A DNA stretch of 64,000 nt. It comes from an uncultured delta proteobacterium. Lineage in GTDB: Bacteria > Desulfobacterota > Binatia > JACPRU01. Location of the stretch: assembly GCA_963745025.1 (NCBI GenBank), contig CAVUWD010000011.1, positions 384,001 to 448,000 of the forward strand, written 5' to 3'. The notes below the pieces were generated by a model. That model had not been told where the DNA came from. It was given only the letters and a program-made list of their open reading frames with translations, and did no database searches. The translations under genes were made by a program, and so were the position numbers. Below, one piece after another: positions 6,299 to 64,000 of this stretch; the first letter of the stretch is position 1; each line of letters opens with the position of its first letter.

Positions 6299-6312
6299 GT
6301 TGTACATGCAAC
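6299..6312. promoter_or_regulatory. Putative MarR operator, copy 1
   Basis: Imperfect palindrome GTTGTACATGCAAC just upstream of the QueG-like start; related copy at 6809. Confidence 0.5.
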
Positions 6313-6329
6313 TAAAGGCTCAAAAAAAC

Positions 6330-6800: not shown

Positions 6801-6808
6801 GTCGGACA

Positions 6809-6822
6809 GTTGCATATGCATC
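6809..6822. promoter_or_regulatory. Putative MarR operator, copy 2 (autoregulatory)
   Basis: GTTGCATATGCATC immediately upstream of the marR ATG. Confidence 0.5.
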
Positions 6823-7110
6823 TACCTCAAGCAACCCATCGGGTCGACACGCTCGCGCGCGGCGGCTCGGGAAGCCGAGAGCACGGAACCGGCGCACCGG
6901 GCGACGTCAACGGAAAGACGCAAGGACCGCGTGCCGTACGAGCGCGCGATTTCGATGATTCGGGGGAACCGCGTTTCGCTGCGTGTCGTCGCCATCGGCG
7001 ACCAGGTCCGAGCTCGAAGACGGCGCGGCTTCGTCTTGCATGGAGGCGTCGCTAACACGGCACGCGAGCCAACCGCGCGCGGTCGAACAACGTCATCGGA
7101 TGCGCTATCT

Positions 7111-23116: not shown

Positions 23117-23813
23117 TCGTCTCTCCGCTCGCCGGGGCGCCGCCGCGCCGCTCGGGGCCCCGATGGCGGGCGGCGGTCTCGAGGAATCGCGCGACCGCCG
23201 CGGCGTCGGCCTCCGGCCGCTCCGCGAGAAAGGCCGCGGCCCTCCCGGTCAGTTGGGCGACGGCCGCGCTGGCCCCGCGGACGCGCGCATCGCTGGTCTG
23301 CGGGCAGGCGCCGAAGTCCGCTTGCGCGCTTCCCAGAAAAGACACGTCCCCCGGAGCGCAGCGCGCGTCTCCCGAGACGCGGATCACGCCCGGATACGCG
23401 GCCGGAAACACGGCGGGGCCTCGGGCGGGGGCCGCAGCCAGAAGAATTGCACCTGCGGCCTGCGCCGCCGCGCACGCCGCGCGCAGCACATCGCGGTCGC
23501 TCCGCACCCCGAAGCTCATGTTGACGAGCCGCGCCCCCTGCTCGACCACCCAGCCGAGGGCGGCGGCGACGACGGCGGGCGGCGCTTCCATCCTGCGATG
23601 GAAGACCTGGGCGCTCGCGATCCTCGCCGTCGGAGCCGCGACAAGGATCGTACGGGCGACCGAGGATCCGTGGCCGATCGCGTCGGCGCTCGCCGGGCGG
23701 CGCTCGATTCGTTCGCCGTCGCCGAGCACGAAGGCGCTTTGGACTGCGACGCAATCGCCGAGCTCGCTCGCCACGCCGCTGTCGAGCAGGCCGACGAGGA
23801 CCTCGCCGCTCAC
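23109..23813 (-). CDS. qhpE: Subtilisin-like S8 protease removing the QhpC leader
   Basis: Short S8 with GLLDSG / GHGSSVA / GASAA triad motifs; cluster context. Confidence 0.88.
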   Translation of the reverse strand: MSGEVLVGLLDSGVASELGDCVAVQSAFVLGDGERIERRPASADAIGHGSSVARTILVAAPTARIASAQVFHRRMEAPPAVVAAALGWVVEQGARLVNMSFGVRSDRDVLRAACAAAQAAGAILLAAAPARGPAVFPAAYPGVIRVSGDARCAPGDVSFLGSAQADFGACPQTSDARVRGASAAVAQLTGRAAAFLAERPEADAAAVARFLETAARHRGPERRGGAPASGETIR

Positions 23814-25534: not shown

Positions 25535-25553
25535 TTGCCCGCTCCGAGGAGCC

Positions 25554-26669
25554 TCAGCGCCGGATCAGCCGCAGCGAGGCCGTCGCCTGATCCCCGCCCC
25601 CCGGCAGCCGGATGATGGCGAGCCGCTTCAGCGAATCGGTGGAATACACGCCGATTTGGTCCATGGCGCCTCCGAGGTAGACCTCCCGCCCGTCGCTCGA
25701 GATGTTGATCGCGTAGTAGGTGTGGTCGACGTCGATGCGCTTCACGACCTTGTGGCTCCGGCGGTCGAGCTTCGTGAGGGTCGCGTAGACGAGGAAGACC
25801 TCGTCCCGCCGGATCGGGTTCACGACTCCCGAGAAGATCACCTTGGTGGTGTTCTCGAAATCCTCCATCGCGAACTCGCCGCTCGCGAGATCCAGACTGA
25901 GGAGGCCGGTACGCGCCGCGCCGGGGTCCGTCGGCGGAACGTCGCTGCGCATCACGTTGTAGGGTGAGACCAGAATCCCGGAGGCCTCCCACTGCGGCCA
26001 CATGTCGAGCACGTCGGGTTCGCCGTATCCCGGGCGCCCCCAGTGCCGCACCTCGTGCCGGCCGAGCACGGTGCCGGTCGCCGGGTCGAGGACGAGCAGG
26101 TCCCAGCCGAGCGCGTAGAGCTTCGAGCCGTCGCGCGAGAATGCGAGGAGCGAGGTACGCCGGGGACCGGGCAACACGCGCGCCGGCTTTGCCGCCATTC
26201 CGTCCGCGGTGCGGTAGACGGCGATGCGGGTGTCCTTCACGTGGTACTCGTCGGGCGCGAGCTCCACGGGCGATTGGAAGGCGTAGAGCTCCTTGCCGTC
26301 CGGGCTGATCTCCGCGACGATCGCCTTGACGCGCTCCGCCGTGACGCGCTCCGACGGCGGCGTCGAGAAGTCGGCGCGGAACACCTCCTGTCCGCTGTCG
26401 AGGTCGATGCCGACGATGCTCTCCCAGCGGTTGACGACGACGTAGGCGACCTTCCCGTCGGGCGAGGGAACGATGAACCCCGGGCCAGGCGCGCCGTCGC
26501 GCAGCGTGTAGGTGCGCTCGACCTTACGCGCCGCGACGTCGACGAGCACGAGCTTGTCGGGCTTGACGCCCGCAAGCAGAAAGTCTTTGGCGGCCGCCGG
26601 CGCCGAAGACGCCGCCAGCGCGGTCACACAGAGGAAAATACCGAGCCGCTGCGAGCATGCGCGAATCAT
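25554..26669 (-). CDS. qhpB: Quinohemoprotein amine dehydrogenase beta subunit (beta-propeller)
   Basis: Signal peptide; [19 protein letters not shown]; LPGGGDQ. Confidence 0.92.
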
Positions 26670-26989
26670 CGCTTGGGGAAGACCTCCGCGAGACGCCGCC
26701 AGTCGCGCTGCGCCGACTCGGCGCCCTTGTTCCAGTCCGGGTAGCTGTTGAGCGTGTCGGGCACCTGCGCGGGCCACCAGCAGGGGTCGGAGCACCCGTA
26801 GAGGTCGGCCTCCATCGGCTGGCAGAGGCTCGCCACGCCGCCGAAGGGGTCGACCTCCCAGCCGGGATCGAAGGTCGCGGTGCAGCCGGCCGGCACGGTC
26901 TGCATCAGGCGCACCTCGTCGAGCTTTCCCTGCTCGGCGAGGCGCACCAGGTGCCGGGCCTTCGCGTTCAGCGGCTTCAGGTGCCTCAT
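26666..26989 (-). CDS. qhpC: Quinohemoprotein amine dehydrogenase gamma subunit (CTQ precursor)
   Basis: Leader MRHLKPLN; [37 protein letters not shown]. Confidence 0.97.
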
Positions 26990-28416
26990 CGGTCTCTCCT
27001 CCTCGGCTCGACGTGACGCTCGAAGAAGCCCGGGTTCGCGGCCGTGATTCGGGCGTAGACGCCGACGCCGAAGTCCACCCAGTCGCGCAGGATGTCGCAG
27101 TAGTGAGCGACCGGGTGAAGCGGGTCGCCGTAGCGCGCGTACGACTCGTGGTAGCAGCCGCCGGAGCAGAGGTTGCGGATGCGGCAGGTTTCGCACGGTC
27201 GTCCGCTTCGGTCCTGGGCGCCGTCGAGAAACGCCCCGAGCCGTTCATGGTCGACGCCGTGCTCGACGTCCCCGAAGCGAGGCAGGCTCGAGCCCGTGAA
27301 GCGATGGCACAAGTTGAGACCGCCCTCGCGGTCTACGGCGAGCATGCCGACGCCCGCGCCGCAGGGAAGCGACTTCGCGCGCCCTTCGTAAAGATCGGTC
27401 ATGAGCTGATGCATGTTCCCGAAGCCGATGTTCTCGTCGCGGATCGCCGCGCGCCCGTACTCCTCGCCGAGCCGCTTCATGCCGTCGAATACGGCGACGA
27501 GATCCTCGTCGGAAAGCCGGAACGAGGCGGAGGCGCCCGAGGTGACCGGCGCGAAGCCGACCTCGAAGAATCCGATCTCCTCCCGCAGGTGGCGATGGAT
27601 GAGCACGACGTCGGTGACGCCTCGCGTGAGCGTGACCCGCGCGCCGACCGGGCGGGAGCGGTAGCGGGAGAGAAGCTTGCGCACGTTCCGCGCGACGACG
27701 TCGTAGGTTCCAATCCCGCCCACCGTCAGGCGGTTCCGGTCGTGGAGCGCCTTCGGTCCATCCATGCTCACCGTGAGGCCGAAGCGGTGCTCGTCGAAGT
27801 ACTCGACGAGCGGGTCCGAGAGCAGGGTGGCGTTCGTCGTCAGGCTGAAGTCGACGGCCTTGCCCGCTTCGGCCGCCCGCTTCTTGGCGTAGGCGACGAC
27901 GTCGCGGATGAGCGGCATGGCGGTGAGCGGCTCGCCGCCGAAGAACACCACGTTGACGCTCGGGCGCTCCGCCGCCTCGCGCAGCAGCAGCTCGAAGGCC
28001 CCGATCGCGGTGTCTAGGCTCATGCGCTGGCCCTCGGCGGGCGCGGCGAGATCCTCCTTGTAGCAGTACGTGCAGCTCAGGTTGCAGCCGGTGTTGACGT
28101 TGAGCACGATCGTGCTGAGCGGGGTAGCGCGCACGTGCATGGGCGCGCGCTCGGGCCAGCCCGGCGCGCCGCCGCCGACGATTCCGAGACCGCGGAGCTC
28201 GCCGAGCGCCTCGGCGATCTCGTCGGGGGTGGCGCGGCCATCGAAGCGGCGCCTCAGCTCGTCCTCGGTGACGGCGCGCTTTCCCCGGAAGAGATCGAGC
28301 AGCTCCGCGGTCACGGCGTCGAGTTCGAAGAGGCTCGTCGTCGGCACGTGGAAGAGCAGGCGTCCGCCGTCCACGTCGATCTCGCGTACGTCCGATTCTC
28401 GCAGCTCGAGCGTCAT
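26986..28416 (-). CDS. qhpD: Radical SAM/SPASM thioether-forming maturase
   Basis: CNLSCTYC; GGEP; SPASM cysteines CGAG...LCHRF...CETC..NLCSGGC. Confidence 0.95.
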
Positions 28417-28535
28417 CAGGCGGCTCTCTCTAATTTACTCAGCGCAGCGTCGCTGCAACCGAAACGCACGACGGCGACGCTGCCTCGTATCTCATACCTT
28501 CATCAAAAAACGAGAATTCCTACCGTAGTCGTAGC

Positions 28536-30107
28536 TCAGCGCAGCGGCGGATCGACCCAGCGCTGCAGCGTGACGATCAGATGGGCGATCCCTTCGACCG
28601 TTCGCCCGCCATCGGCGACCGCGGCTCGGACCGTGAGGTCGCCCGCGTTGTTGGTGTGATAGGGGCGCTCGGGGTTGGGCCCAGCCTCCGCCGGCATGAA
28701 GAGGCCGCCCGGCTCCATGGTGCCCGCGTACTTTGCGTCCTTCAGCTTCGCGGCTGCCTTGTCGAAGCCGACGACGGACCAGCGCGCCTTCATCGCCCCG
28801 AGGCGCACGTCGTCTTCGGTGCCGGGCTTGCCGTCGGGTCCGTCGAGGTACGCGACCGCATCGAACTGGGCCGGGACCGGCGCCTTCGCGCCACCCCCGC
28901 CGCCCACGCGAGCGATCGCGTAGGGGGGCTCCACGCGCACGGAGTCGATCTTCTCATAGACCGCGAAGAGGCCGCGAGCCTGGGCCTTCCCGACCGCCAC
29001 CTCGCGCCGGCCGGCCGCCGCGCCGCGCGTGGCGCGAGCGAGCACGCGCACCGTGTCGGCGGTCGCCTCGCGGCCCTCGATCTCAACGCCGTCGCCGAGG
29101 CTCACATCGCCGGCGAGGCCGACTCCATGGATCGACACCTCGGTCCGCTCACCGCTCCGCAGGAAGGAGGGCTCGACCGCGAGGATTCGCGGCTCGCCGC
29201 CGTCGCGCACGCCGCGCAGATCCGCGCCGAGCGAGTCGCTGTCGACGAGGAACGAGCGACCCGAAAGCTCTTTGCCGTCTTCGGAAAGCGCCAGCACCTG
29301 CGACACGTTCTCATTTCCGAGCTCGAGGCTCCCCCGCCACTCGTAGCCCGTGTAGACGATGGCGCTCCCCTTACCCGAGGCCTTGGTGCCATCGGCGTAG
29401 CGGACCTCGAGCGACACCGCGTACTCGTCGGCCGCCGAGCGGGTGACCGACATGCGCCCCTCGTAGTCTCCCTTGCCGGGACGATGGCCCACGACCCGCC
29501 ACGAGCCCGAAAAATCCGCCTTCTCGTGCCGTTGCCACTGCGTCCACGCGGGCGTCGACAGCGGGTAGAGAGCGGCGAGGCGATCGGGCACGCGCGTGCT
29601 GGCGATCTCCCACCAGTTACGGTCGCGCCCGCGGGACTGGTACTCGAGGGTCGGCCATTGGCCGAGGTGAAAATGCGCGAGCTTCAGCCACTCCGCCGTC
29701 TCGCGGCGCTCCAGGGCGAACCGCGCGTAGCTGTGACAGCGGCCGCAGACGACGGCGAGCTCCTCGTCGGGCGGCGCCTCGACCACGTCCGTACGGCGCT
29801 CCAGGGCATAGCGAAAGCCGCGTGTCTCTTCGGGAGCGAGCCCCTGCGTGTCGGCAAGGTACTTCACGAGCGCCCGACGTTCCTCGTCGGTGACCTGCAG
29901 GTTGTGGATATGCTGCATGCGCTGGATGTTCATCAACCAGCCTTCGGGGGTCTTCCGCTCCTCGTTGATGCGGCTCAGGCGGACGCCGTCGAGAAGGCGG
30001 TGGCAAGCGCCGCAGCGTGTCCGCAGAAGCTCCGGCGCATCTGCCGCACGCAGTGTGGGCGCGCCGCCGAGCAGCACCGCCACGACGCATGACGCGAGCA
30101 GCCTCAT
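28536..30107 (-). CDS. qhpA: Quinohemoprotein amine dehydrogenase alpha subunit (di-heme c)
   Basis: Signal peptide; CGACH and CGRCH; RKTPEGW, HLGQWPTLEYQ, QRWVDPPLR. Confidence 0.96.
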   Translation of the reverse strand: MRLLASCVVAVLLGGAPTLRAADAPELLRTRCGACHRLLDGVRLSRINEERKTPEGWLMNIQRMQHIHNLQVTDEERRALVKYLADTQGLAPEETRGFRYALERRTDVVEAPPDEELAVVCGRCHSYARFALERRETAEWLKLAHFHLGQWPTLEYQSRGRDRNWWEIASTRVPDRLAALYPLSTPAWTQWQRHEKADFSGSWRVVGHRPGKGDYEGRMSVTRSAADEYAVSLEVRYADGTKASGKGSAIVYTGYEWRGSLELGNENVSQVLALSEDGKELSGRSFLVDSDSLGADLRGVRDGGEPRILAVEPSFLRSGERTEVSIHGVGLAGDVSLGDGVEIEGREATADTVRVLARATRGAAAGRREVAVGKAQARGLFAVYEKIDSVRVEPPYAIARVGGGGGAKAPVPAQFDAVAYLDGPDGKPGTEDDVRLGAMKARWSVVGFDKAAAKLKDAKYAGTMEPGGLFMPAEAGPNPERPYHTNNAGDLTVRAAVADGGRTVEGIAHLIVTLQRWVDPPLR

Positions 30108-30160
30108 CTCAGGTCGGCTCTCTAACCCGGCACGCTGGCCGGCCGCAAGGACAATCGCAC

Positions 30161-30418
30161 TGATTCCGTACCTCCCTCGGTCTTCGCCACGACTGCTTCG
30201 GGAAGATGGAGAGCGCGGTCGGTTGTGATCGCCCGTACTCGGGTCGATCACGACCGACCGCAACCGCGCGCAGCGCGGAAGGCAATACACCAGCGTCGAG
30301 AGCTATTGCTTTCCGCGCTGCGCGCGGTGGCTGGATCTTTCGGTCGACCCGAGCACGGGCCGACCGGAAGATCCAGCGCTTCAGGAATTTCCAGCGCGTG
30401 TGGCCAACACTGAGGCAT
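30161..30418. repeat. Three-hairpin element, copy 1 (imperfect terminal inverted repeats)
   Basis: CCTCGGTCTTCGCCAC...GTGGCCAACACTGAGG ends; stems at 30215-30261, 30263-30328, 30330-30377. Confidence 0.9.
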
Positions 30419-30581: not shown

Positions 30582-32855
30582 TTACGGCAGCGGCGCGTCC
30601 GCCGCGAAGCGCGTCAGCACGTTGGCGGTGATCCGCGACACGTCGTTGTCGTGCCCCGCGTGCGCGAGGCTGCCGCACCAGGCGATCGAGCCGACGCTGA
30701 ACACCGCCCCATCGCGCGGCGTCTTGAAGTAGACGATGTCGGCGCGCACCTGCGGATCCTGCGTGCCGCCGAGCCCGGGATAGTTGAACATGATCTCCTC
30801 GACGACGTGCGGGTAGTCGTCGCTGTGGCCCTCCGAGCTCGCCACCAAGAACGCGCCCGGCGGCGTGCCCAGCGCGAGCTCGTAGCGATCGATCTCGTAG
30901 CCGGCGGCGCCGCCGCCGACCAGGCCAAAGTCGCCGATGCGCTCGGGTCGCTCGACGCCGTCGAGGATCCACGCGGCTTGCGGATCGAGACCGTCGGGCA
31001 TGCGGACGTAGTGCGAGGAACGATCGAAGCCCTCGGCCGTGAAGCCGACGCCGAAGATCTTCTGCGGCGGGCGGGCGCGGTTGCGCCAGATGCCGCCGCG
31101 CTCGCCGGTGGTCGCGTGGTAATACTCCCCCGGGCTCGCCTGCCACGCGCGCGATCCGCTCTCGGCCTTGCGGACCTCGATCACCCACGGCTTCTCGGGG
31201 TGGAACGACGTTATCCAGTAGAAGCCGTTGGCGCCGAGGTACATCGTGCGGCCGCCGCCGGCGAGATAGCTCTCGAAGGCGTCGAGCATGCGGGTCGAGG
31301 TGTACTCCGGATGCGTGCCGGTCAGCACCACGCGGTAGCGGCGGAGCAAGTCGGCGCCTTCGCGCTCGAGGTCGTGGTCGGTGGCGACGTCATACGTGAT
31401 GCCCTTGGCGTTCAGCCATTCGACGAGGTGGAGGTCGGCGGGGAATTGCCAGACCGTGCCGGTGCCGTGGCGCGCCTTCGGCCGCATCGTCAGGATCGGA
31501 CGGCGCCAGGTCGAGAAGCATACGCCGCTGCCGTCGGTGTGATGATCGTACGTGGACAGCCCGAGCTCGGGGTGCGCCACCAGATGGAAGTCGTTCGCGT
31601 CGAGGACGGGGGTGTGACCGACGATCGCCTGCCCGACCGGCACTTCGGCGACGATGTGGTCGTTGGCGTACGCGAGATAGCTGGCCGTCGGCACGAGGAA
31701 GAGGACCTTGGCCGTCGCCCGGCCCCGCGGCGGCAGCACGAAGAACGGTACGTGGTCCTCCGACTCTCCGAGGCGAACTCGCAGCGCGTAGACGTCGCTC
31801 TTCATGCCGGCGGGGACGACGAGCTCGAGGTCCGGATGCCACCCGCAGTCCTCGAGGTCGTCATCGTGGAAGTGGATCGCGCCGTACTCCCCCGGCGCGT
31901 GAACGAAGCTCTCCTCGCGCCCGCGCCAGTTGAAGCCCGTGGCTGCGCGCACTGGCAGATTCACGCACGATCCGTCGAGCCCGCTTCCCGAAACGTCCGC
32001 CACGCGATCGGTGGCGATGCCGTTCGCTCCGATACCGGCGGCGAAGTCCCAGCGCGCGAGCAGGCCCTCTGCCGCGGGCTCGCCGCCCGCGCCGAGCGCG
32101 CGCACCTCCTCGCGGCCGAGCGCGCGGCCGTAGAGCTTCGGGCGATCGAGCTTGCCGTTGAAATGTCCGCCGACGATCGGTCGCGACGCGTCGCCGCTCT
32201 CCACCCAGCCCGCCATCACCAGCGGCACACCGGCGTCAGCGAGAACGGCGTCGGCCCGGGCTTCGACGAACGCGTCGCCGTCGATCGGGCAGACGGGACC
32301 GAGCAGGCTGTTCACCGAGTTGACGATCGGGGTTTGCGCGATCCAGGCGCGACCGGCCGCCGGATCGAAGCCGGCCGCGATCGAGTACCAGACCGAGGGG
32401 AGCAGCGGCTTCCCGGAAGCGACGACCGCCACGCGGCCCCTGCCGTCGCCGAGCAGCAGCGCGGGCCCTTCGGCGTCGAGCACGAGCGCGTATCCGGCCT
32501 TGCGGGGCCCCGACCAACGGGTGATCAGCCCTTGGCGCCCCTTCGCCGGCGTCGTCGGATAGACGTAGGCGTGCAGGGCGAAGGCGCCACCGGGGTGAAG
32601 CCGCCCGCGGTCGTCGACCACCACGTGCGAGCCCGGGTGGATCGGCTGGAAGCGGCCGGGGTACACGCCGGAGAGCGCGGTCTCGACCGGCATCTCCTTG
32701 AAGCCGGGGCCGGCCGGATTGGTATCACCGTTCACCAGACGAACGACGTCGGCGCGATACGAACCCGGCTCCGATGCGCTGACGAAGAAGCGGATCGTCT
32801 CGCCGGGCGCGACGCTCGGGCGATCGCTGTATCCGTGAATGTCGGTCTTCTGCAC
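30582..32855 (-). CDS. dmfA2: N,N-dimethylformamidase-like large (beta) subunit
   Basis: SYLAYAN, GLSTYD, GTHPEY, GYEID (Tyr/Tyr/Glu Fe ligands and catalytic residues of the family); YLGANGFYW; FSVGSIAW. Confidence 0.88.
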   Translation of the reverse strand: MQKTDIHGYSDRPSVAPGETIRFFVSASEPGSYRADVVRLVNGDTNPAGPGFKEMPVETALSGVYPGRFQPIHPGSHVVVDDRGRLHPGGAFALHAYVYPTTPAKGRQGLITRWSGPRKAGYALVLDAEGPALLLGDGRGRVAVVASGKPLLPSVWYSIAAGFDPAAGRAWIAQTPIVNSVNSLLGPVCPIDGDAFVEARADAVLADAGVPLVMAGWVESGDASRPIVGGHFNGKLDRPKLYGRALGREEVRALGAGGEPAAEGLLARWDFAAGIGANGIATDRVADVSGSGLDGSCVNLPVRAATGFNWRGREESFVHAPGEYGAIHFHDDDLEDCGWHPDLELVVPAGMKSDVYALRVRLGESEDHVPFFVLPPRGRATAKVLFLVPTASYLAYANDHIVAEVPVGQAIVGHTPVLDANDFHLVAHPELGLSTYDHHTDGSGVCFSTWRRPILTMRPKARHGTGTVWQFPADLHLVEWLNAKGITYDVATDHDLEREGADLLRRYRVVLTGTHPEYTSTRMLDAFESYLAGGGRTMYLGANGFYWITSFHPEKPWVIEVRKAESGSRAWQASPGEYYHATTGERGGIWRNRARPPQKIFGVGFTAEGFDRSSHYVRMPDGLDPQAAWILDGVERPERIGDFGLVGGGAAGYEIDRYELALGTPPGAFLVASSEGHSDDYPHVVEEIMFNYPGLGGTQDPQVRADIVYFKTPRDGAVFSVGSIAWCGSLAHAGHDNDVSRITANVLTRFAADAPLP

Positions 32856-33346: not shown

Positions 33347-34231
33347 TCAGCGCGGCCCGGCGAAGGCCGGATTCGCCTTCTTCCAGGCGTCGAGCGGCTG
33401 TTCGCTTCGCCAGCGTCGCGCGTACTCGCCGAGCGGTTCGAAGACCACGCCGTCGTGGCGCTCGAAGTGATCGATCAGGCGCTCGAGCATCCGCATGCGG
33501 TGTCCGCGCCCGATCACCTGCGGGTGGAGGGTCAGCGTGTAGAGGCCGCCGCGACAGTTCGCGTACGCATAGTCGAAGTCGCCCCTCCAGATCTCCTCGA
33601 CGACGGAAGGCGCGGAGAGGCCCGTGTTGCTGCCGAGGATGAACTCGAACGGCGGGAAGTCGTCGAGGCCCCAGGTGACCGGCAGCTCCACGAGCGGCGT
33701 CGACTCGCCGAAGACGTACGGCTCGTCGAGCGACCAGCGGTCTCCCCTACGCAGGTAGTACGGATGAAAATCGCTCCCCATGCAGCTCGAGTCGTATTCG
33801 AAGCCGTACTCGAGTAGGAGGTCCACGGTTCTCGGGCTCAGGTCCCACGCCGGGGAGCGGTAGCCTCGCGGCCGTTCTCCGCCGACCTTTTGGAGCGCTT
33901 CGAGGCCGCGCTCGAGGATGCGCCGCTCCCCGGCCTCGTCGAAGCTCGCGGGGTTCTCGTGCACCCATCCGTGGTGGACGATCTCGTGGCCGTCGTCGCG
34001 GATCTGCCGGACGAGGTCCGGATAGGCGAGCGCCGTGTGGCCGGGCACGCACCAGCTCGTGCGAATGCGGTGGCGGCGCAGGAAATCGAGGATGCGAACG
34101 GTGGCGACGGCACCGAACTCACCGCGAGAGATCATGCTCGGGTTCCGCGACTTCATCGAGCCGATCCACACCGACATCGCGTCGAAGTCGAACGTGACGG
34201 AGCAGGAGAGTCTGCGGTTCGCGGGGCTCAC
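33347..34231 (-). CDS. Polysaccharide deacetylase (CE4, PuuE/HpPgdA-like) amidohydrolase
   Basis: TFDFD, HEIVHHGWVHE, GYRSPAW, YDSS, LHPQVIGR. Confidence 0.92.
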   Translation of the reverse strand: MSPANRRLSCSVTFDFDAMSVWIGSMKSRNPSMISRGEFGAVATVRILDFLRRHRIRTSWCVPGHTALAYPDLVRQIRDDGHEIVHHGWVHENPASFDEAGERRILERGLEALQKVGGERPRGYRSPAWDLSPRTVDLLLEYGFEYDSSCMGSDFHPYYLRRGDRWSLDEPYVFGESTPLVELPVTWGLDDFPPFEFILGSNTGLSAPSVVEEIWRGDFDYAYANCRGGLYTLTLHPQVIGRGHRMRMLERLIDHFERHDGVVFEPLGEYARRWRSEQPLDAWKKANPAFAGPR

Positions 34232-35118
34232 GGTTTCCTCTCCTTTCGCGCGAGATGCGACGGCCATTCCCGGTAGAGCCGGGCGCGGCGGCGGCGATCG
34301 CGGAACGTCGGTGCGGCGCCCGTTTCCCGGTTCGCGTGCAAGAGACCGAGGTCGAGCTCGGCCCGGATCACCGTCTCGCGGTTCGCCTCGGCCTCCGCGA
34401 GCACGCCCCGCGCCGGCCACGGCACGTCGCACGGTCCGAGGATCGAGCTTCGACCCCACGCGCCGGGAAGCGGCGCGCCGGGCGCGCCGACCGCGCAGCA
34501 GTGCACCACGTAGATCTGGTTCTCGATCGCGCGCGCCTGCGCGCAATGCCGGACGCGCCAGAAGCCGTGCTCCGTCAGCGTGAACGACGGGCAGAGGACG
34601 ACCTCGACGCCTTGCTCCGCGTAGCTCGAGGCGCACTCGGGGATCTCCGCCTCGTAGCAGATGGCGACGCCCACGCGTGCGAAGCCGAGATCGACCGCCT
34701 CGAGCCGCTCGCCCTCCCCGCTTCCCCACGCGGACTCCGCCGGGAAGATGTGGGTCTTCGCGTGCGTGTGAACCCGTCCGCCCGGCTCGAAGAGATGCGC
34801 GACGTTGAGCGTCTGGCCCCCCGGGCGAACCAGGTGAGAGCCGGCGAGGATCGCCTGGCCGCGCGCGCGTGCCTCGCCGGCGAAGAGCGCGCGGTATTCA
34901 CCCGTGAAGGTATCGATGCGCGGCAGGTCGGCGAGCGGCGCCTCGCGCCATCCCGGGAGGGCCGTGAAGAGCTCGATCGTGAAGAGCTCCGGGAAAACCG
35001 CGAGGTCCGCGCCGCGCGCGTCGTCGAGGAGCGTGCGGACGTGGACGGCGAAGTCCGCGAAGTTCCTGACGGGCCGGAGCGCGAGCTGACAGGCGGCTAC
35101 CGAGAGCGTGCGAGCCAT
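34228..35118 (-). CDS. Carbon-nitrogen hydrolase (nitrilase superfamily amidase)
   Basis: E-K-C triad: FPELF, HAKTHIF, ICYEAE; ARAIENQ. Confidence 0.93.
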   Translation of the reverse strand: MARTLSVAACQLALRPVRNFADFAVHVRTLLDDARGADLAVFPELFTIELFTALPGWREAPLADLPRIDTFTGEYRALFAGEARARGQAILAGSHLVRPGGQTLNVAHLFEPGGRVHTHAKTHIFPAESAWGSGEGERLEAVDLGFARVGVAICYEAEIPECASSYAEQGVEVVLCPSFTLTEHGFWRVRHCAQARAIENQIYVVHCCAVGAPGAPLPGAWGRSSILGPCDVPWPARGVLAEAEANRETVIRAELDLGLLHANRETGAAPTFRDRRRRARLYREWPSHLARKERKP

Positions 35119-35173
35119 CGCCGAAACCCCGGTGAATCTAGAGCACGGCGCGGGCTCCGGCAACAAGCGACAA

Positions 35174-35232: not shown

Positions 35233-36228
35233 TCAGGGAACTGGCAACGTTGCGAGGAGCGCAGACCAGCGTTTGCTGCCCTGACGGCCGCGGCGCGCAA
35301 TGCGACAGAGGGATTCGGGCCGAATCCCGATGGCTTGGGCAAGCTGCGAGGCCCGCTGTCCGAGACATTCGATCCAGAGGAAGGCAAGCGCTTCCCTCGC
35401 CTTCGAGCAGGCCGGGAGCTTGTTGCCAGACGTGAGCGCAGCGCGCGGAGCGCCCGTGGCCGCGGTGACGAAGTCGATGAGCACGTCGAGCGGCGGAGGG
35501 TTCTGGCGCAACGGAGCAATCGCCGGCGGGGCAGCCTCTCTTCGGATCTGATCCAGGAACGCCTCGCTCCTGAGGATACGTTCTTCCGCTCGCTGTCGGC
35601 GGCTGCGCTCTGCAAGGGTCGCGACCGTTCGCCAGACCTTGCCGCGCCGGGTCGTTTCGCGCATCGGTTTCTCGTCGAGGCCCTCCGCGACGAAGGTTCT
35701 GTAGTTCAGCCGCCCGGTCTCGCGGGTCTGGCCGAAAGCCGCCAGGACGTACTCGACGTCGAGGAAGCGTGCGGGTCGGTTTCCGAGAATTGCCGGGTGA
35801 CCTGTCGTCGACTCGTAGTCGAGCTGGTCGATGCTGGTGAGGAGCTTGGCCCGGATGGGGTTCAGGTGGATGTAGCGCACGAGCTCGCGGAAGTACTCGG
35901 CCTCTTCGCAAAGGATGGACTTGAAGCGGTTCTGGAAGAGGTGTCCGGCGCGCTTGTGGCGGAGATTGAAGGACACGGCGTAGCCTGTGAGGAGCGAGCT
36001 CATCGCTCGGCTGATCGGCCTATTGCGGGTACGGGCGAGGATGTGGAAATGGTTGGGCATAAGAGAGAAAGCGTAGATCGAGATCGCTCCCGCCTCGACC
36101 AGGCGTTCGAGGCGGTCGAGGAAGTCGAGGCGGTCTTCGTCGGTGACGAAGATCGAGCAGCGCTCTATCCCGCGCGCCATCAGGTGATGGAGCGCCCCCT
36201 CCGCGTCGAGCCTCGGTCCCCTCGGCAT
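35233..36228 (-). mobile_element. REP-associated tyrosine transposase (RAYT/TnpA-REP, Y1 HUH) with C-terminal HTH
   Basis: HHLMARG, HUH in MPNHFHIL, GHLFQNRFKS, RYIHLNP; flanked by REP sequences. Confidence 0.92.
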
Positions 36229-36307
36229 GTTCGTGGCCGCGGGGGCAGAGGGTGGCGCGGATTGTGTTAGCAGCGACGCGGCAGGAGGAGGAACAAGAAG
36301 AAAGAGC

Positions 36308-36381
36308 GGGGACGCTCCCAACCTTGATGACCTTCGAGGCGAGAACGCCCGACGAAGGTTGCGAAGGTAAAGAACGTCCCC
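36308..36381. repeat. Degenerate REP doublet upstream of RAYT
   Basis: GGGGACGCTCCCAACCTTGATGACCTTCG ... GACGAAGGTTGCGAAGGTAAAGAACGTCCCC. Confidence 0.85.
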
Positions 36382-58416: not shown

Positions 58417-59319
58417 ATGACGGCGGTGGAGACGTTCCTGCTCGAATTCCAGGACCGCGTGACGAGCGCGCTCGAGGAGGAAGACGGTCAAGCCCGCTTC
58501 GAGGACGAGCGCATCGACGGCGACGGAGGCGGCTTCGCGAGGCCGCGGGTGCTTTCAGACGGGCCCGTGCTCGAGCGCGCTGCCGTGAATTTTTCGCACA
58601 CGGTCGGCCGCGACCTGCCGGCGCCCGCGACGGCTCGGCGGCCCGAGCTCGCCGGCGCCAGCTACGACGCGATCTCGGTCTCGCTGATCGTGCATCCTCG
58701 AAATCCGTACGCGCCGACGAGCCACGCGAACTTCCGCTTGTTCCTCGCGACACGCGACGGCCAAGAGCCCGCCTGGTGGTTCGGTGGCGGGTTCGATCTG
58801 ACGCCCTACTACGGCTTCGAGGAAGATGCGGTTCATTGGCACCGCTCGGCGAAGGAGGCCTGCGACCCGTTCGGCGCCGAGCTCTACGCGCGCTACAAGC
58901 GGGCGTGCGATGAATATTTTTTTCTCAAACATCGCGACGAGCCCCGCGGCATCGGCGGTCTCTTCTTCGACGACCTTACCGAGGGCGGCTTCGAGCGCTC
59001 GTTCGCTTTCGTGCGCAGCGTCGCCGAGCACTATCTCCTCGGCTATCGCCCGATCCTCGCACGGCGAAAGCGTCATCCGTTCGGGGAGCGCGAGCGCTCG
59101 TTTCAGCTCTTCCGCCGCGGCCGCTACGTGGAGTTCAACTTGATTTACGATCGCGGCACGCGCTTCGGCCTGCAGTCGGGGGGGCGCGTCGAATCGATCC
59201 TCGCCTCGCTGCCGCCGCTGGTGTCGTGGCGCTACGGCTGGCGACCCGAGCCGGGAACGGCGGAAGCCGAGCTCTACGAGAAGTTTCTGCGACCGCGTGA
59301 CTGGATCCGCACCGAGTGA
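58417..59319 (+). CDS. hemF: Oxygen-dependent coproporphyrinogen III oxidase (alternative start 58393)
   Basis: [42 protein letters not shown]. Confidence 0.97.
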
Positions 59320-59394
59320 TCAGGCCGCGACCACATGCTCGGTCGGTCCGCAGCGATTCGTCCTCGGCCGAAAGGGGGCCGCGTCCCGCGTTCC

Positions 59395-60627
59395 TCAACG
59401 CGCAAGCAGGGCGAACTGGTTGACGGTGAAAAATTCGTTCCGTACCCGAGCGTCCACGACGACGCGGTTCATAGTCGTGACCGCGGCATCGCCGGTCACG
59501 TGATTGATGACCGTTTGTCCGATCCACAGCGGCGCGCGGACGCGTTCGTTGCCGGGGCTAAACGCCGGATTTCCGTAGAGCGTGAAGATCGTCTTGGTGT
59601 GCTTTCCCTGCCGGTCGTACGCGAAGACGTACAGGGCCACGCCCGTCTGCTCGTCGATGAAGAGCACACGCTTCGCGTACGGGTGATTCGGATCTTTGGG
59701 GGTGCCTTCGAGCAAGAGCATCGTGCGCAGTTCCCAAGGGTCGGCCGGATAGCCGCGGCGCGGCTCGAAGGTCGCTTTCGCAGCTCTCACTGCGACCGGC
59801 GCCAGCAGCGTGGCGCGCCCGAGGAAGCGCCAGTCGTACTCGTGCAGGTACCCCCAGAAGCCGTAGAAGTCCTCGTTCAAGAGCTCGCTCGACATCATCC
59901 GCTCTCGCGGGTCGACGTTGACCTGACGGACCTTCCGCATCTCCGGTATCCAGGCGAAATTCAGATCGCTGGTGCGATCGTCGTCGTAGCGTAACTTGAG
60001 CCTCATCTGGTTCTTCACGTCTTCCGGTGCGAGAACTTGATAAAACTCCTTGAAGAGGACCCCGTCGCCCTCCCAGAGGTTGGCCTTCGCGTCGAGCCGA
60101 TGCATGCCGTACCCCAGGGCATAGTAGAACTCCATATCGCGCACCATGTGCCCGGTTCCGTCGAGGATTTGAAACACTCCCCACGCCTGGGCGGAGTCGA
60201 TCGACTCGTGGCACCGATAATTCCACGCGAGCTTGAGGCCGGCTTGAGGGTCCGCCGGATCGATTTGCGGAAACGGACGACCGGCGACGTAGCCTTCGAG
60301 GCTTCCATCCGGGCGAAGGCGGGGCTGCCCGGCATTTCGTCGCGTCGCCTCGACATAGGCGGGGCTCGGGGGCAAGTCGGTGGTCCGCTGCGTGCGAATC
60401 TCAAGCTCTCCGCTCTTGACCTTTTCGACGAGCTCGGCGGGGAGAAGGCCTTCCGCGCGTTGCCAATTCCCCCGGGAAAGCACGGCGGGCATTTCCGCTT
60501 CGGCGGGGTCCTTGGACGGGGCTATCGACCGTTCGATGTCGCCCGTGGCATCTAAACTGTCCGCCAGGCTACTCACGCTTGCGGTTAGCATTGTTGCGAA
60601 CACGATCGGCACGATGAAGATTCGCAT
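59395..60627 (-). CDS. DUF1329 domain exported protein
   Basis: Signal peptide; GRPFP.IDP.DPQAG.KLAWN; W.P..RKVR; HPYAKRVLFID. Confidence 0.85.
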   Translation of the reverse strand: MRIFIVPIVFATMLTASVSSLADSLDATGDIERSIAPSKDPAEAEMPAVLSRGNWQRAEGLLPAELVEKVKSGELEIRTQRTTDLPPSPAYVEATRRNAGQPRLRPDGSLEGYVAGRPFPQIDPADPQAGLKLAWNYRCHESIDSAQAWGVFQILDGTGHMVRDMEFYYALGYGMHRLDAKANLWEGDGVLFKEFYQVLAPEDVKNQMRLKLRYDDDRTSDLNFAWIPEMRKVRQVNVDPRERMMSSELLNEDFYGFWGYLHEYDWRFLGRATLLAPVAVRAAKATFEPRRGYPADPWELRTMLLLEGTPKDPNHPYAKRVLFIDEQTGVALYVFAYDRQGKHTKTIFTLYGNPAFSPGNERVRAPLWIGQTVINHVTGDAAVTTMNRVVVDARVRNEFFTVNQFALLAR

Positions 60628-60655
60628 GGGTATCCTCCGTCCTACCTTATAATCG

Positions 60656-60670
60656 GCATCTTCCGTGCCT
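60656..60670 (-). promoter_or_regulatory. Putative sigma-54 promoter for the DUF1329 gene
   Basis: Minus strand AGGCACGGAAGATGC (GG-N10-GC), 28 bp before the ATG. Confidence 0.4.
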
Positions 60671-60973
60671 GACAGCTAGGGTCGTAGAATCTCAATTTCC
60701 CGTCGCTACGGCATGCCCGCAGGAGCCCAGGTGCCGCCAAAAGGTGCGATTGGCCCGAATCGAGTCAACCGCCGAATAGGCTGAAACGTAGTTTTGGCGC
60801 GAATCTTGTCCACTTGGTCGAGAAGCCGGACCGCGACGCGGTCGTCGAAGATCGCCGGCCTCGGCAACCCGGGGAACGAGTGCTAGGGCATAGCGCCCCT
60901 TGCCATCGGTGGACGAGGGGCCACGCGCCCTTCGCGAGCACGCTCGAGTTTGCCTTACCCATCGGCCGTAGGT

Positions 60974-63013
60974 TCACGCGTTGCCCCGGCCGTAGAGCCG
61001 CAGGACGAAGCCCCCCCGCTTGCGGAGCTCGTCTGGCGTTCCCGCTGCCGAGAGCGCCTCGACGATCTCGCCGATCGACATGTACGCCTTGACCGCCTCG
61101 CGAGTCGGACCGACGATGTTGTCGCGGGCGCGATAGGCGTCGACCAGCCGCCGCCGGGCCGCCTCGACGGCACGGGGGTCGCGCTCGCGCTTCACTCTTT
61201 CCAGACGCGCGATTTGCTTCGAGCGCCAGGCGGGGTCGGGCTTGAGGGCTTCGGCGCGTTCGGCCCGGCCGAGTTCCTCGTCCCCCTCGGTGACGAAGGC
61301 ATTCACGCCGATCACGGTCCGGCGGCCGCTGTCGATCTCGAGCTGACGGCAGTAGGCCGCTCGGTGCGTTTCGTCCGACATCCATCGCCACGACTGCTCG
61401 CCTTCCATCGACTCGAGATGGGCAAGGATCGCTTGCGCCCGGCGCTCGAGCTCGTTGGTCAATGCCTCGATGCAGTAGGAGCCCCCGAAAGGATCGACGA
61501 CGCGCGTGATGCCGCACTCAAGGGCGATCACCTGCTGGGTCCGGATCGCGAGGGTCTGGCTGAAGGGCGTGGGGATCGCGAGCGCCTCGTCGAAGGCGTT
61601 GACGGAAAGCGACTGCGCGCCTCCCGCCACGGCGGCCAACGCGTGGAGGGTCGCCCGAACCAGGTTGACGAGCGGCTGTTGCTCGGTGAGACTCACCCCG
61701 GAAGTCTGCACGTGGAAGCGGAGCCAGCACGATCGGTCGTCTTTCGCACCAAACCGCTCGCGCAGCATCCGGGCCCACGTCCGCCGCATGGCGCGGAACT
61801 TCGCGAGTTCCTCTAGGAAGTCGCTCTCGGCGTTCAGGAAGAACGAGAGGCGCGGCGCGAAGGCGTCGATCGCGACGCCGCGCGAAAGCGCCGCCTGGAT
61901 CGTGTACACGCCTTGAAAGAGGCCGAACGCGATCTCCTGCGCCGCCGAGATGCCCGACTCGCGCGTGTTCCTGACCGAGATGCTCGTGTGGTTCCAGCGC
62001 GGCAGCTCGCGGGCGCAAAATTCGATGATGTCGACGTAGTGATTGCCGCGGAGATCGGGAGGGTCGCCCCACGGAAGCACGTAGTTCTGGATCGTGCCGG
62101 AGAGGCGCTCAAGAGGAATCCCCCGTTCCTCGGCCAACGCGACGATCATGCAGAGGACTGGAATCGAGTTGCCGGTCTGGTTGATGCTGATCTTCTCCAG
62201 ATCGATGCCGTCGAAGACCGTTTCGATGTCGGCAAGGGTGTCGATCCAGACCCCGCCGACGCCGATCAGCCCCTCCGACCGCGGATCCGACGACTCGAAG
62301 GGCGCGTATCCCATTCCGGTCAGGCTGACGCCGGTCTGGCCCTGCTCGATCAGGTAGCGTAGGCGCTCGTTCGTCTCCTCCGCGGTGCCGACCCCCATCA
62401 CTTGGCGGACCGTCCACTTTCGCGTGCGGTAGCCGAGTTCCGAGACGCCGCGCGTGAACGGGTAGTGCCCCGGAAGGCCGAGATCACGATCGGGATCGAA
62501 GCCTGCGAGATCGTGCTGCGTGTAGACGGGCTGCAGTTGAATTCCCGACGTGGTCGTCGGTTCTTCCGTTACGGCGCGTCCGCGGTCAGCCTGTCCGCCA
62601 TTCTCGGCGGCCTGCCCGATTCCGAGATCCTTGCGCAGAAAGTCCGTGATCTCGGAGAGCTTCGAGCCCGGCCCGAAGACCGCCCGGACGCCGCGCTCAA
62701 CGAGCCTCTCTCGGATCTCTCTCCGGACGATGCCCCCCATGACCACAGGCACGTCGCCGAGGCCTCGCCTCGACAGCTCACCGAGCAGGCTCTCACCGAG
62801 GACCGCGGCATCCCGATCCATTACCCGGTAGCCGATGGCATCGACGCCCTCCTGCAACGCCGCCTCCGCCACATGAGCGGGCTCGGCATAGCCGATCGAA
62901 ACCACCTCGAAGCCGCCGTCCCGGAGACCGGCGAGTACCGCTTGATAGCCCGCGGTGTGGCCGGAGGTATCGCTGGCGAAGAGCACCTTGCGCGGCATGA
63001 GCGCAGCCTCCAT
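60974..63013 (-). CDS. B12-dependent acyl-CoA mutase family protein, N-terminal cobalamin-binding domain + C-terminal TIM barrel
   Basis: SGHTAG..L..GGFEV, VVMGGI, VFGPGS (B12 domain); PG.YPFTRG, GTAEETN.R, LSGTIQN, LRFHVQTSG, AFDEAL, VDPFGGSY. Confidence 0.88.
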   Translation of the reverse strand: MEAALMPRKVLFASDTSGHTAGYQAVLAGLRDGGFEVVSIGYAEPAHVAEAALQEGVDAIGYRVMDRDAAVLGESLLGELSRRGLGDVPVVMGGIVRREIRERLVERGVRAVFGPGSKLSEITDFLRKDLGIGQAAENGGQADRGRAVTEEPTTTSGIQLQPVYTQHDLAGFDPDRDLGLPGHYPFTRGVSELGYRTRKWTVRQVMGVGTAEETNERLRYLIEQGQTGVSLTGMGYAPFESSDPRSEGLIGVGGVWIDTLADIETVFDGIDLEKISINQTGNSIPVLCMIVALAEERGIPLERLSGTIQNYVLPWGDPPDLRGNHYVDIIEFCARELPRWNHTSISVRNTRESGISAAQEIAFGLFQGVYTIQAALSRGVAIDAFAPRLSFFLNAESDFLEELAKFRAMRRTWARMLRERFGAKDDRSCWLRFHVQTSGVSLTEQQPLVNLVRATLHALAAVAGGAQSLSVNAFDEALAIPTPFSQTLAIRTQQVIALECGITRVVDPFGGSYCIEALTNELERRAQAILAHLESMEGEQSWRWMSDETHRAAYCRQLEIDSGRRTVIGVNAFVTEGDEELGRAERAEALKPDPAWRSKQIARLERVKRERDPRAVEAARRRLVDAYRARDNIVGPTREAVKAYMSIGEIVEALSAAGTPDELRKRGGFVLRLYGRGNA

Positions 63014-63999
63014 CACACTCGCTCCAGGAGAGTTCCCGTACCAAGCCCGCCACCGCAGCACATGGTCACCAAGGCCCTTCGCCCACCCGACCGCAAGAGC
63101 TCCTGCACCGCCTTCGTCGTGAGCACGCAACCGGTTGCTCCGAGCGGATGACCGAGGGCGATCGCGCCGCCATTCGGATTCACCCGCGCGAGATCGGCAT
63201 CGACAACGCGCGCCCAGGATAGGACCACCGAGGCGAATGCTTCGTTGATCTCGAACACGTCGACGTCGCGAATTCCGAGGCGGTTGCGCTCGAGGAGCTT
63301 TCGAGTCGCCGGGATCGGTCCCTCCAACATGAGCACCGGGTCGCAGCCCACGAGGCAGGTGTCGACCACCCGCGCGATCGGCCGGCAACCGAGCTGCGTT
63401 GCCTTCTCCCCGGTCATCAGCAGCACCGCGGCGGCTCCGTCCGCGATCTGCGACGAGGACCCCGCCGTGTGAATGCCGTCCTCGCGCGCCACGGGCTTCA
63501 AGGCCGCCAGCGCCTCGAGGCTCGTCTCGCGGGGCACCTCGTCGCGAGCGACGATCCTCGTCTCTCCGGTCCGCTCTCCGTTCGCGTCGGTGACCGGCAA
63601 TACGACGGGAATGATCTGTTTCTCGAAGCGCTTCTCGGCGACCGCGCGCGCGGCCCGGAGCTGCGACTCGAGGCCGAGTCGGTCGGTGTCTTCGCGCCGG
63701 ATGCCGTACTTGACGGCCATCCGCTCGGCGCCTTCGAACTGGCTGGTGAACTCGAATCGCTCCCAATATCTGCGGTCGATCGGCTTGCCGAATCCCGCCT
63801 TCGCGCCCGCGATCGCATCGCCGCCGATCGACACCAGGCTCATGTTCTCGACGCCGCAGGCGAGCACGACGTCCTCGGCGCCCGAGGCGAGCAGGCTGGC
63901 TGCCAGATTCACTGCGTGCTGGCTCGACCCGCATTGGGAATCCACGGTCGAGCAAGCGACCTCTACGGGGCCGCCGGCCGAGAGCCACGCGGTGCGGGT
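63013..63999 (-). CDS. Thiolase (acetyl-CoA C-acyltransferase, FadA5-like), 5'-truncated by window edge
   Basis: QCGSSQ, NEAF, GGAIALGHPLGATG, MCCGGGLG; TGATG overlap with the mutase. Confidence 0.95.
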   Translation of the reverse strand, partial: TRTAWLSAGGPVEVACSTVDSQCGSSQHAVNLAASLLASGAEDVVLACGVENMSLVSIGGDAIAGAKAGFGKPIDRRYWERFEFTSQFEGAERMAVKYGIRREDTDRLGLESQLRAARAVAEKRFEKQIIPVVLPVTDANGERTGETRIVARDEVPRETSLEALAALKPVAREDGIHTAGSSSQIADGAAAVLLMTGEKATQLGCRPIARVVDTCLVGCDPVLMLEGPIPATRKLLERNRLGIRDVDVFEINEAFASVVLSWARVVDADLARVNPNGGAIALGHPLGATGCVLTTKAVQELLRSGGRRALVTMCCGGGLGTGTLLERV

Positions 64000-64000
64000 G

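Follow-up and report, generated by a model that had tools for sequence, protein, structure and literature searches.

In methylmalonyl-CoA mutase (MCM; P. shermanii 1req/5req, human 2xij and R. etli ScpA, our reference locus L082), of which single-chain forms exist, the cobalamin (B12)-binding domain lies C-terminal to the substrate barrel, and ethylmalonyl-CoA mutase (ECM) is likewise a single chain with a C-terminal B12 domain. IcmF (4xc6) carries the B12 domain N-terminal to the barrel in one chain, with a MeaB-type G-protein domain between the two, and the 2-hydroxyisobutyryl-CoA mutase (HCM) of Aquincola tertiaricarbonis, HcmAB (4r3u), consists of two subunits. The 64,000-nucleotide stretch analyzed here, which we call the window (positions 384,001 to 448,000 of contig CAVUWD010000011.1, from an uncultured delta proteobacterium of the Binatia), encodes near its end a protein with the same two domains as MCM and the same QTSG and NxFDEA core, in which the B12 domain is N-terminal, as in IcmF, but no G-protein domain intervenes. 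Judged from its sequence, this protein is likely to be a functional adenosylcobalamin (AdoCbl)-dependent acyl-CoA carbon-skeleton isomerase from a broad, uncharacterized clade of the MCM superfamily. What is new here is a lineage-specific permuted fusion within that clade; the kind of enzyme is already known.

Domain architecture of the fused mutase

The gene and its domains are as follows.

60974..63013, reverse strand: fused mutase gene, 679 codons plus stop from the ATG at 63013, or 674 codons if the ATG at 62998 is used

62624..62995, reverse strand: N-terminal cobalamin-binding (Rossmann-like) domain, residues 7–130, from PF02310, TIGR00640 and structure alignments

62558..62623, reverse strand: linker, residues 131–152, joining the B12 domain to the barrel

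61049..62557, reverse strand: acyl-CoA mutase substrate (TIM-barrel) domain, residues 153–655, from PF01642, the HcmA match and Foldseek

The uninterrupted frame at 60974–63013 (reverse strand) translates to 679 residues. Its N-terminal part matches the Pfam B12-binding family (PF02310; residues 12–117, E 7.5e-10, 39 bits against a cutoff of 32) and NCBIfam acid_CoA_mut_C (TIGR00640; residues 14–130, 67 bits against 57), and residues 153–655 match both Pfam MM_CoA_mutase (PF01642; E 1.3e-152, 509 bits against 22, model positions 1–508 of 512) and NCBIfam acid_CoA_mut_N (TIGR00641; 476 bits against 304). The Pfam scan of the protein returned no MeaB or GTPase domain and nothing besides these two. 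Pfam and NCBIfam thus agree with the sequence-only reading of this DNA, which had placed the B12 domain ahead of the barrel across a short linker with no MeaB-type GTPase.

The B12 domain aligns with the B12 domains of human MCM, 2yxb and HcmB, and Foldseek superimposes it on small subunits with TM scores of 0.82–0.90; the top Foldseek matches are 4r3u and then MCM. In the AlphaFold2 model, residues 135–149 of the linker form a low-confidence coil with a predicted local distance difference test (pLDDT) score below 50. The linker has equal length and variable sequence in the five fused proteins we identified (see below) and takes the place of the N-terminal leader of split large subunits. The protein is thus predicted to be a single chain of a B12-binding domain, about 20 disordered linker residues and an acyl-CoA mutase barrel, without a GTPase.

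A substrate pocket rebuilt throughout a clade

We compared the active-site and cofactor motifs residue by residue with solved structures, including 5req_A, which is named as the Y89F mutant chain of P. shermanii MCM. Three sites are referred to throughout.

62399..62401, reverse strand: codon of Val205, which takes the place of Tyr89 in P. shermanii MCM and lies opposite the mutant Phe of 5req_A in the alignment

61967..61972, reverse strand: Arg348-Asn349 codons, at the Tyr243-His244 positions of MCM by alignment to 5req_A

62957..62959, reverse strand: codon of His19, which is presumably the lower axial ligand of cobalt; the variant motif around it, read from the sequence, is DTSGHTAG

The stretch WTVRQVMG aligns with WTIRQYAG of MCM and WTMRQIAG of HcmA. 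Further along, SLTG..MGY aligns with SVAFDLATHRGY, so that the segment is shortened to SLTGMGY and its FDLPT part is gone, and QNYVLP.......W aligns with QNDILKEFMVRNTY, with seven residues gone from the window protein; the MCM stretch opposite this gap, EFMVRNT, holds Arg207 of 5req_A (chain index 206, plus 1). SISVRNTRE aligns with SISGYHMQE, placing Arg348 at Tyr243 and Asn349 at His244. HcmA has Ile, FDMPT and YH at the corresponding positions, and isobutyryl-CoA mutase (ICM) has Phe at that of Tyr89. In the B12 domain TSGHTAG stands opposite QDGHDRG; the His, the final Gly and the GG are kept, SGHTAG has another residue for the Asp, and YRVMD takes the place of SxL. Human MCM and HcmA have matching QTSG and NxFDEA stretches. 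All the substitutions listed in the sequence-only reading (Val for Tyr89, VSLTGMG, QNYVLPW, SISVRNTRE and SGHTAG) are therefore real by structure alignment.

These changes extend across a large family. Among the best 120 matches listed by a word-indexed protein search, four (P0002–P0005) carry both domains and 116 are barrel-only proteins (427–571 amino acids, 57–81% identical) named from Binatia/Binatota, Dehalococcoidia, Deltaproteobacteria, Thermodesulfobacteriota, Nitrospinae, Rokubacteria and Methylomirabilia. In an alignment of 42 family members, Val205, Gly233, Gly235, Tyr236, Gln309, Ser344, Ser346, Arg348, Asn349 and Arg351 are invariant, as are Gln436, Thr437, Asn472, Asp475 and Glu476, with Asn310 nearly so (at least 90%). 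That the substituted residues do not vary points to a functional active site kept by purifying selection and to a non-standard substrate. The variant B12 motif D[TS]x[GC]H[TSA]xGY, with its His, occurs in all 24 family small subunits examined and in all five fused proteins, and the GG likewise, while GLDGHD is found in paralogous small subunits of the same loci and in other B12-first fusions. Since the altered pocket and the unusual B12 motif are also present in ordinary split, two-subunit enzymes, they are unrelated to the permutation; the rewired active site that had been attributed to this gene is real, yet it is neither peculiar to the gene nor tied to its domain order.

To place the family in the superfamily, we used the best 150 representatives from an exhaustive search of a 50%-clustered library and FastTree trees of 136 and 142 barrels. 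The family forms one 50% cluster (P0114), the next full-length relative being at most 46% identical, and is monophyletic with a support of 1.0. By tree, the clade stands apart from the MCM, HCM and RCM-type references; IaaGH, ECM, pivalyl-CoA mutase (PCM) and alkylsuccinyl-CoA mutase were compared by description only. No NCBIfam equivalog cutoff is reached, and the earlier proposal of a distinct mutase subfamily, for which a phylogeny had been suggested as a check, accords with a window protein that falls outside all three sets of tree references. Barrel identity is 44% to M. petroleiphilum HcmA (L081) and 38% to R. etli ScpA, both references taken from a plasmid collection in which 432 records matched, all below 60% identity and none a family member.

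The sister groups are a Nitrospinota type (L047/L048; support 0.992) and P0124/P0130, with deeper nodes poorly supported. L047 and L048 have Val205 and SVRN in common with the family and retain an FDHPT segment; this sister type may represent an intermediate stage of pocket remodeling. Both loci (L047, 477–5243, and L048) lack the first deletion; the flanking genes are a split MmgE/PrpD pair and one resembling ketopantoate reductase.

Among 122 non-family representatives, Tyr89 is present in 48 and Tyr-His in 42, so divergent pockets are common in the superfamily. What is confined to the family is the pair of loop deletions, found in 12 of 12 family members against 0 of 122 others: one segment has 4 residues, compared with at least 6 and mostly 14 elsewhere, and the other has 6 residues compared with 11–12. 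Canonical MCM-type large subunits adjoin family genes in L001, L004 and L012, which indicates that the family enzyme is additional to, and not itself, the organism's MCM. The family is known from Binatia, Dehalococcoidia, Thermodesulfobacteriota, Methylomirabilota, Nitrospinota and others. Our literature searches, in which subscription papers were outside the scope, returned no paper on this clade or on a B12-first fusion without a G-protein domain.

Origin of the permuted fusion

A scan of species-representative genomes returned 80 loci, of which L001–L046 are family members (55–71% identity). Of these 46, 40 have the barrel gene first and the B12 gene behind it on the same strand, with gaps of 12 to 2203 nt (no more than 164 nt in 35 of the 40); in six the contig breaks off no more than about 115 nt from the barrel gene, and in none is the B12 gene upstream. 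The fusion, by comparison, is common to the four close relatives P0002–P0005 (674 amino acids, 89–98% identity) among the 120 matches listed. The barrel-first order of 40 loci, together with a fusion found in four close relatives alone, implies that the permuted order is young and lineage-specific, and we read the permutation as a recent event in one Binatia lineage.

The fused B12 domain is 38–56% identical to the separate small subunits of the family and carries their peculiar motif; it would therefore be the clade's own subunit and not one recruited from elsewhere. Stand-alone small subunits 61–74% identical to it were also found (P0391–P0395 and P0397), and no match by record appeared among the small subunits for P0006–P0009. 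The C-terminus of the fused protein is the native large-subunit end. The gene order could be accounted for if the genes were first duplicated, then fused, and the outer copies lost. In a local tblastn search for a small-subunit remnant or second mutase, none was found in 60628–60973; weak matches at 33866–34078 (E 0.004–0.05) fall within a polysaccharide deacetylase open reading frame (ORF) and are attributed to chance.

That the fusion is an assembly or frameshift artifact joining two separate subunit genes is scarcely credible. All the more distant relatives are split, and two loci from long-read metagenome-assembled genomes (L033 and L039) have broken barrel frames, as such an artifact might lead one to expect; the four database proteins P0002–P0005, however, come from ENA, NCBI, Logan and JGI and share a continuous, in-frame 674-residue architecture with equal linker length. 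Nor can a frameshift turn the gene order of the split loci into a B12-first one, and no small-subunit remnant lies downstream of the mutase. The sequence error that the sequence-only reading had itself named as a danger is thereby ruled out. In L033 (9884–11573) and L039 (10001–11593) the reading frame of the family large subunit falls into two or three pieces, which reflects either pseudogenes or assembly indels.

The B12-linker-barrel order without a GTPase also recurs farther afield, in 4 of the 150 best cluster representatives (P0127, P0155, P0170 and P0231); with the four close relatives, these are the yield of the search for the same domain order that had been suggested. The four are 675–694 residues long and align in one stretch over residues 8–656 at 33–39% identity. 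They belong to four other clades and carry canonical B12 motifs (GLDGHD), and P0127 has a fully MCM-like active site. Their spread over four other clades indicates that the architecture is recurrent, not unique, and arose in independent events.

Comparison with described acyl-CoA mutases

HcmAB is the closest solved relative, both by sequence (HcmA, 4r3u_A; E 2.6e-113) and by Foldseek (E 3.5e-36). The wider family is two-subunit like HcmAB, whereas the window protein is fused with its B12 domain first. At the Tyr89 position, the Ile of HcmA and the Val of the window protein are both small and hydrophobic. HcmA keeps Tyr-His (SGYHISE), FDMPT with its Asp and a full-length loop, in contrast to the Arg-Asn and deleted FD segment of the window protein; HcmB has a canonical B12 motif, and the hcm cluster, with its orthologue in M. 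petroleiphilum, includes meaB and a dedicated ligase. On the Val, the deleted FD segment, the Arg-Asn pair and its separate clade, the window protein is not an HcmAB.

In relation to MCM (EC 5.4.99.2), Tyr89, Arg207, Tyr243 and His244 are all replaced or deleted, and the score to NF006944 is 459 against a cutoff of 876. The IcmF model NF045497 scores 197 against a cutoff of 1500, with only the C-terminal half of the barrel aligned. The signature of ICM is Phe/Gln; the window protein has Val rather than Phe at position 89, and the Gln-bearing loop is deleted.

RCM-type enzymes, represented by L069 (Brevibacillus) and L071 (Desulfobacteraceae), have two subunits, the barrel gene followed by the B12 gene, and carry Asn at the His244 position (GYNYRE). 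They keep Tyr243, FDxPT and the long loop, all three of which are absent from the window family, and group in a clade of their own (support 0.993), whose signature is WT[IL]RQLAG / GYNYRE. The gene order at L069 is barrel, B12, PaaK-like ligase and MeaB, the arrangement given for the rcmAB/hcl/meaH cluster in PMC7176365; it is this gene context, and no reference sequence, by which L069 is taken as RCM-type. A type that is reported active thus has Asn at the His244 position. As a separate candidate, we considered the mutase that serves the acetone pathway in Desulfococcus/Desulfosarcina (PMC7888143), and rejected it as unsupported: that enzyme is called RcmAB-like in PMC7176365, and the RCM-type clade of L069 and L071 is separate. 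Among the family loci, the context of a thiamine pyrophosphate (TPP) enzyme and a short-chain dehydrogenase/reductase (SDR) occurs at L013 only.

Thiolase junction and gene neighborhoods

Directly upstream of the mutase lies a degradative thiolase gene.

63013..64000, reverse strand: 3' part of a FadA5-like degradative thiolase gene, 328 codons plus stop, cut by the window end; full protein 394 amino acids

63007..63011, reverse strand: GGAGG ribosome-binding-like motif, 8 nt upstream of the ATG at 62998 and just past the thiolase stop, read from the sequence

The thiolase TGA overlaps the ATG at 63013 (gtgTGATGg), which has only GGAG at 8 nt upstream. The fused homologues P0002–P0005 all begin at the second Met of the window protein (MPRKVLFAS), and this, together with the GGAGG before the ATG at 62998, suggests that translation may begin 14 nt past the thiolase stop and not at the TGATG. 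The mutase start is thus ambiguous between 63013 and 62998, and thiolase and mutase appear tightly linked in both cases. The mutase frame remains open for 325 codons further upstream (60974–63988, reverse strand), overlapping the thiolase gene in another frame; the 1004-residue ORF that an ORF finder would report at 60974–63988 is a high-GC artifact. A promoter and terminator scan of 59000–64000 gave no site of either kind. Rfam at gathering thresholds gave no match in the whole 64 kb, and hence there is no cobalamin riboswitch in the window.

The window fragment contains both Thiolase_N and Thiolase_C by Pfam. The full-length thiolase P0271 (394 amino acids) passes TIGR01930 (acetyl-CoA C-acyltransferase; 373 against a cutoff of 241), and its best-scoring model, the steroid 3-ketoacyl-CoA thiolase equivalog NF005889, is narrowly missed (502 against 515); the L016 orthologue scores 497 on the same model. 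At L016 the family large and small subunit genes are followed by an acyl-CoA dehydrogenase (ACAD), a 77%-identical thiolase and a thiolase-like protein. The thiolase P0273 (88% identical) and the fused mutase P0005 are both JGI records with a longest contig of 6797. The pairing of thiolase and mutase probably holds within the fused lineage.

Two observations on L016 may be added. The operon-like row at 132–7099 has a Glu-shifted ACAD, the FadA5-like thiolase and a TLP1-type thiolase-like protein after the family mutase, and it ends with a second small subunit that has a canonical DxHxxG and no adjoining barrel gene.

Gene neighborhoods were counted in 30 annotated family loci. A CoA-transferase or CoA ligase lies within 5.5 kb in 14 of the 30; ACADs occur in five, enoyl-CoA hydratases in four and, by sequence clustering, luciferase-like oxidoreductases in four, and hydantoinase/acetone-carboxylase-like genes and an SDR cluster in three each. 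Four mutase-adjacent ACADs are without the YEG glutamate (they read APV, APV, GPI and SAG) and have Glu-Arg at the helix-G position, the arrangement of isovaleryl-CoA and long-chain acyl-CoA dehydrogenases. These Glu-shifted ACADs are suggestive of branched or bulky substrates, without being decisive.

At two further loci the family gene has unusual company. In L013 (12185–17477, Dehalococcoidia) it adjoins an SDR, a TPP enzyme and two family III CoA-transferases; the TPP enzyme resembles oxalyl-CoA decarboxylase/2-hydroxyacyl-CoA lyase (585 bits against a cutoff of 587 for PRK05858), and the gene set is reminiscent of formyl-CoA/acyloin pathways. In L045 (5631–14359, Rokubacteria) four barrel genes, one of the family and three others, and one B12 subunit gene lie within about 9 kb, in a row flanked by an ACAD and an enoyl-CoA hydratase.

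Proposed function and candidate substrates

From the computed domains, motifs, conservation, gene order and clade position, we infer cofactor binding, catalysis, substrate and pathway as follows. In the Binatia lineage, the clade's own small subunit would have been moved ahead of the large subunit and fused to it through the linker of about 20 residues. His19 would serve as the cobalt ligand, and the conserved HxQTSG and NxFDEA elements would, as they do in MCM and HCM, assist Co–C homolysis and the handling of radicals. The substrate pocket would have been rebuilt by Val in place of Tyr89, Arg-Asn in place of Tyr243-His244, and deletions removing Arg207 and the FDLPT segment; with such a pocket, the substrate should not be methylmalonyl-, isobutyryl- or 2-hydroxyisobutyryl-CoA bound in the known way. 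The product would probably enter a beta-oxidation-like sequence ending at the co-transcribed FadA5-like thiolase.

The retained cofactor and radical core, the invariant rebuilt pocket and the dedicated small subunit found clade-wide together argue for an active AdoCbl isomerase. The opposing view, that the protein is an inert paralogue which has lost mutase chemistry and acts as a cobalamin sensor or, like the MCM beta chain, in a structural or regulatory role, would account for the loss of Tyr89, Tyr243, His244 and Arg207, the missing Asp of DxHxxG and the low B12-binding Pfam score of 39 bits. Decaying sites would drift, whereas the replaced positions are invariant across several phyla; conservation extends to the His ligand, GG, QTSG and NxFDEA, the clade's own small-subunit gene has stayed beside the barrel gene in 40 of the 46 loci, and the barrel spans nearly the whole PF01642 model. 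We therefore regard an inert paralogue as very improbable.

A number of observations do weigh against an active enzyme coupled to the thiolase. Tyr243 and His244, which are replaced, are important for MCM catalysis. The canonical Asp of DxHxxG is absent from 24 of 24 small subunits and all five fused proteins, and SxL is changed to YR[IV]MD family-wide, so that His-on cobalamin binding is an assumption here. The AlphaFold2 model is of only moderate confidence (mean pLDDT 73, predicted TM score 0.65) and is poor at residues 178–207 and 468–490, active-site segments included. No MeaB chaperone or adenosyltransferase gene was found among the 47 ORFs scanned in the 64-kb window, and the operon upstream of the thiolase falls beyond it. 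Besides the two mutase subunits, no gene cluster occurs in more than 5 of the 30 annotated loci, and the neighborhoods are thus heterogeneous. A thiolase lies beside the family mutase in 1 of 46 loci (L016), and its type is very common: the other 118 matches listed are 76–96% identical, and many unrelated contigs carry it at 76–81% identity. The partnership with a translationally coupled thiolase put forward in the sequence-only reading accordingly keeps its adjacency and its TGATG overlap, but with an ambiguous start and a single syntenic locus among 46 the functional link is weak.

Three classes of substrate can be weighed for the AdoCbl isomerase. A substituted succinyl- or malonyl-CoA, rearranged as it would be by IaaGH or alkylsuccinyl-CoA mutase, Arg348 anchoring the carboxylate anew and the deletions giving room, is possible, though we put it forward tentatively; the clues are the new Arg, the enlarged pocket and iaa-like neighbors (compare PMC8360864 and PMC8453981). 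More doubtful is a substrate like those of HCM, RCM or PCM, with a tertiary or quaternary carbon in a branched or hydroxy acyl-CoA, to which HcmA as nearest solved relative, the hydrophobic residue at position 89 and the isovaleryl-CoA dehydrogenase-like ACADs nearby would point. For the branched or quaternary-carbon acyl-CoA suggested in the sequence-only reading, the support is circumstantial. Some other substrate would account for the remainder.

Related to this is whether the clade is simply one of the less familiar known mutases, in which case only the fusion would be new. IaaGH is the phenylsuccinyl-/benzylmalonyl-CoA mutase of anaerobic indoleacetate degradation, and alkylsuccinyl-CoA mutase acts in anaerobic alkane degradation. 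L010 and L036, with a CoA ligase, the mutase and hydantoinase A/B-like genes, resemble the iaa cluster; family III CoA-transferases are present in L007, L013, L015 and L026, an ACAD adjoins the mutase in L016, L023, L026 and L045, and Arg348 with loss of the Arg207 loop would suit a bulky carboxylated substrate. The iaa cluster itself, as set out in PMC8360864 and PMC8453981, comprises the ligase IaaB, hydantoinase-like IaaCE, family III transferase IaaL, mutase IaaGH and ACAD IaaF. Against this stand the ACADs next to the family mutases, which read APV, APV, GPI and SAG at the YEG position and not GGG as in all IaaF orthologues (PMC8360864).

Aromatoleum, Azoarcus and cultured alkane degraders are absent from the sources of the 46 family loci. 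The only NCBIfam equivalogs that score at all are the MCM, IcmF and MutA-type models, and the C-terminal position of the B12 domain in single-chain ECM counts against that enzyme. Taking both sides together, identity with IaaGH or with alkylsuccinyl-CoA, ethylmalonyl-CoA or pivalyl-CoA mutase seems unlikely. It is conceivable, and we would go no further, that the clade, marked by Val205, Arg348-Asn349 and the two deletions, carries out a rearrangement outside the known set of B12 mutases, with Arg348 standing in for Arg207, Tyr243 and His244, and that the Binatia chain is self-contained without a neighboring MeaB gene.

Implications

Newly assigned specificities of B12 acyl-CoA mutases (ICM, ECM, HCM, RCM, PCM and IaaGH) have each opened a degradation or assimilation pathway, and several of these enzymes became tools for branched or tertiary building blocks. 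The present clade is common in uncultured phyla of soil, groundwater and sediment, and its conserved yet rebuilt pocket makes it a well-defined target for substrate discovery, for which the fused form offers a single-gene expression construct. Caution is warranted in that most uncharacterized superfamily members are also without the textbook residues (80 of the 122 non-family representatives lack Tyr-His). The Binatia fusion and the four independent fusions elsewhere indicate that subunit order is evolutionarily flexible in these enzymes.

Other genes in the window

Downstream of the mutase, and at some distance from it, the following genes were annotated.

59395..60627, reverse strand: DUF1329/LolA-like secreted protein gene (PF07044, PF17131), 346 nt past the mutase stop

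28536–30290, reverse strand: quinohemoprotein amine dehydrogenase alpha subunit, with all four Qn_am_d/haem domains

26986–28416, reverse strand: radical S-adenosylmethionine maturase-like gene

23810–25534, reverse strand: ATP-binding cassette exporter

23109–23813, reverse strand: subtilase

30582–32855, reverse strand: 757-residue protein with an N,N-dimethylformamidase beta-subunit-like C-terminal domain (333 bits)

Membership of the DUF1329 gene in the mutase operon is uncertain; Binatota locus L020 has another DUF1329 gene, 3.5 kb downstream of its split mutase. The genes at 23109–30290 (reverse strand) look like a quinohemoprotein amine dehydrogenase cluster. The 757-residue protein adjoins a carbon-nitrogen hydrolase (34228–35166) and a polysaccharide deacetylase-like ORF (within 33347–34729). 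At 35233–36321 (reverse strand), an IS200-like Y1 transposase domain lies in a 362-residue ORF that is far longer than a typical IS200 transposase.

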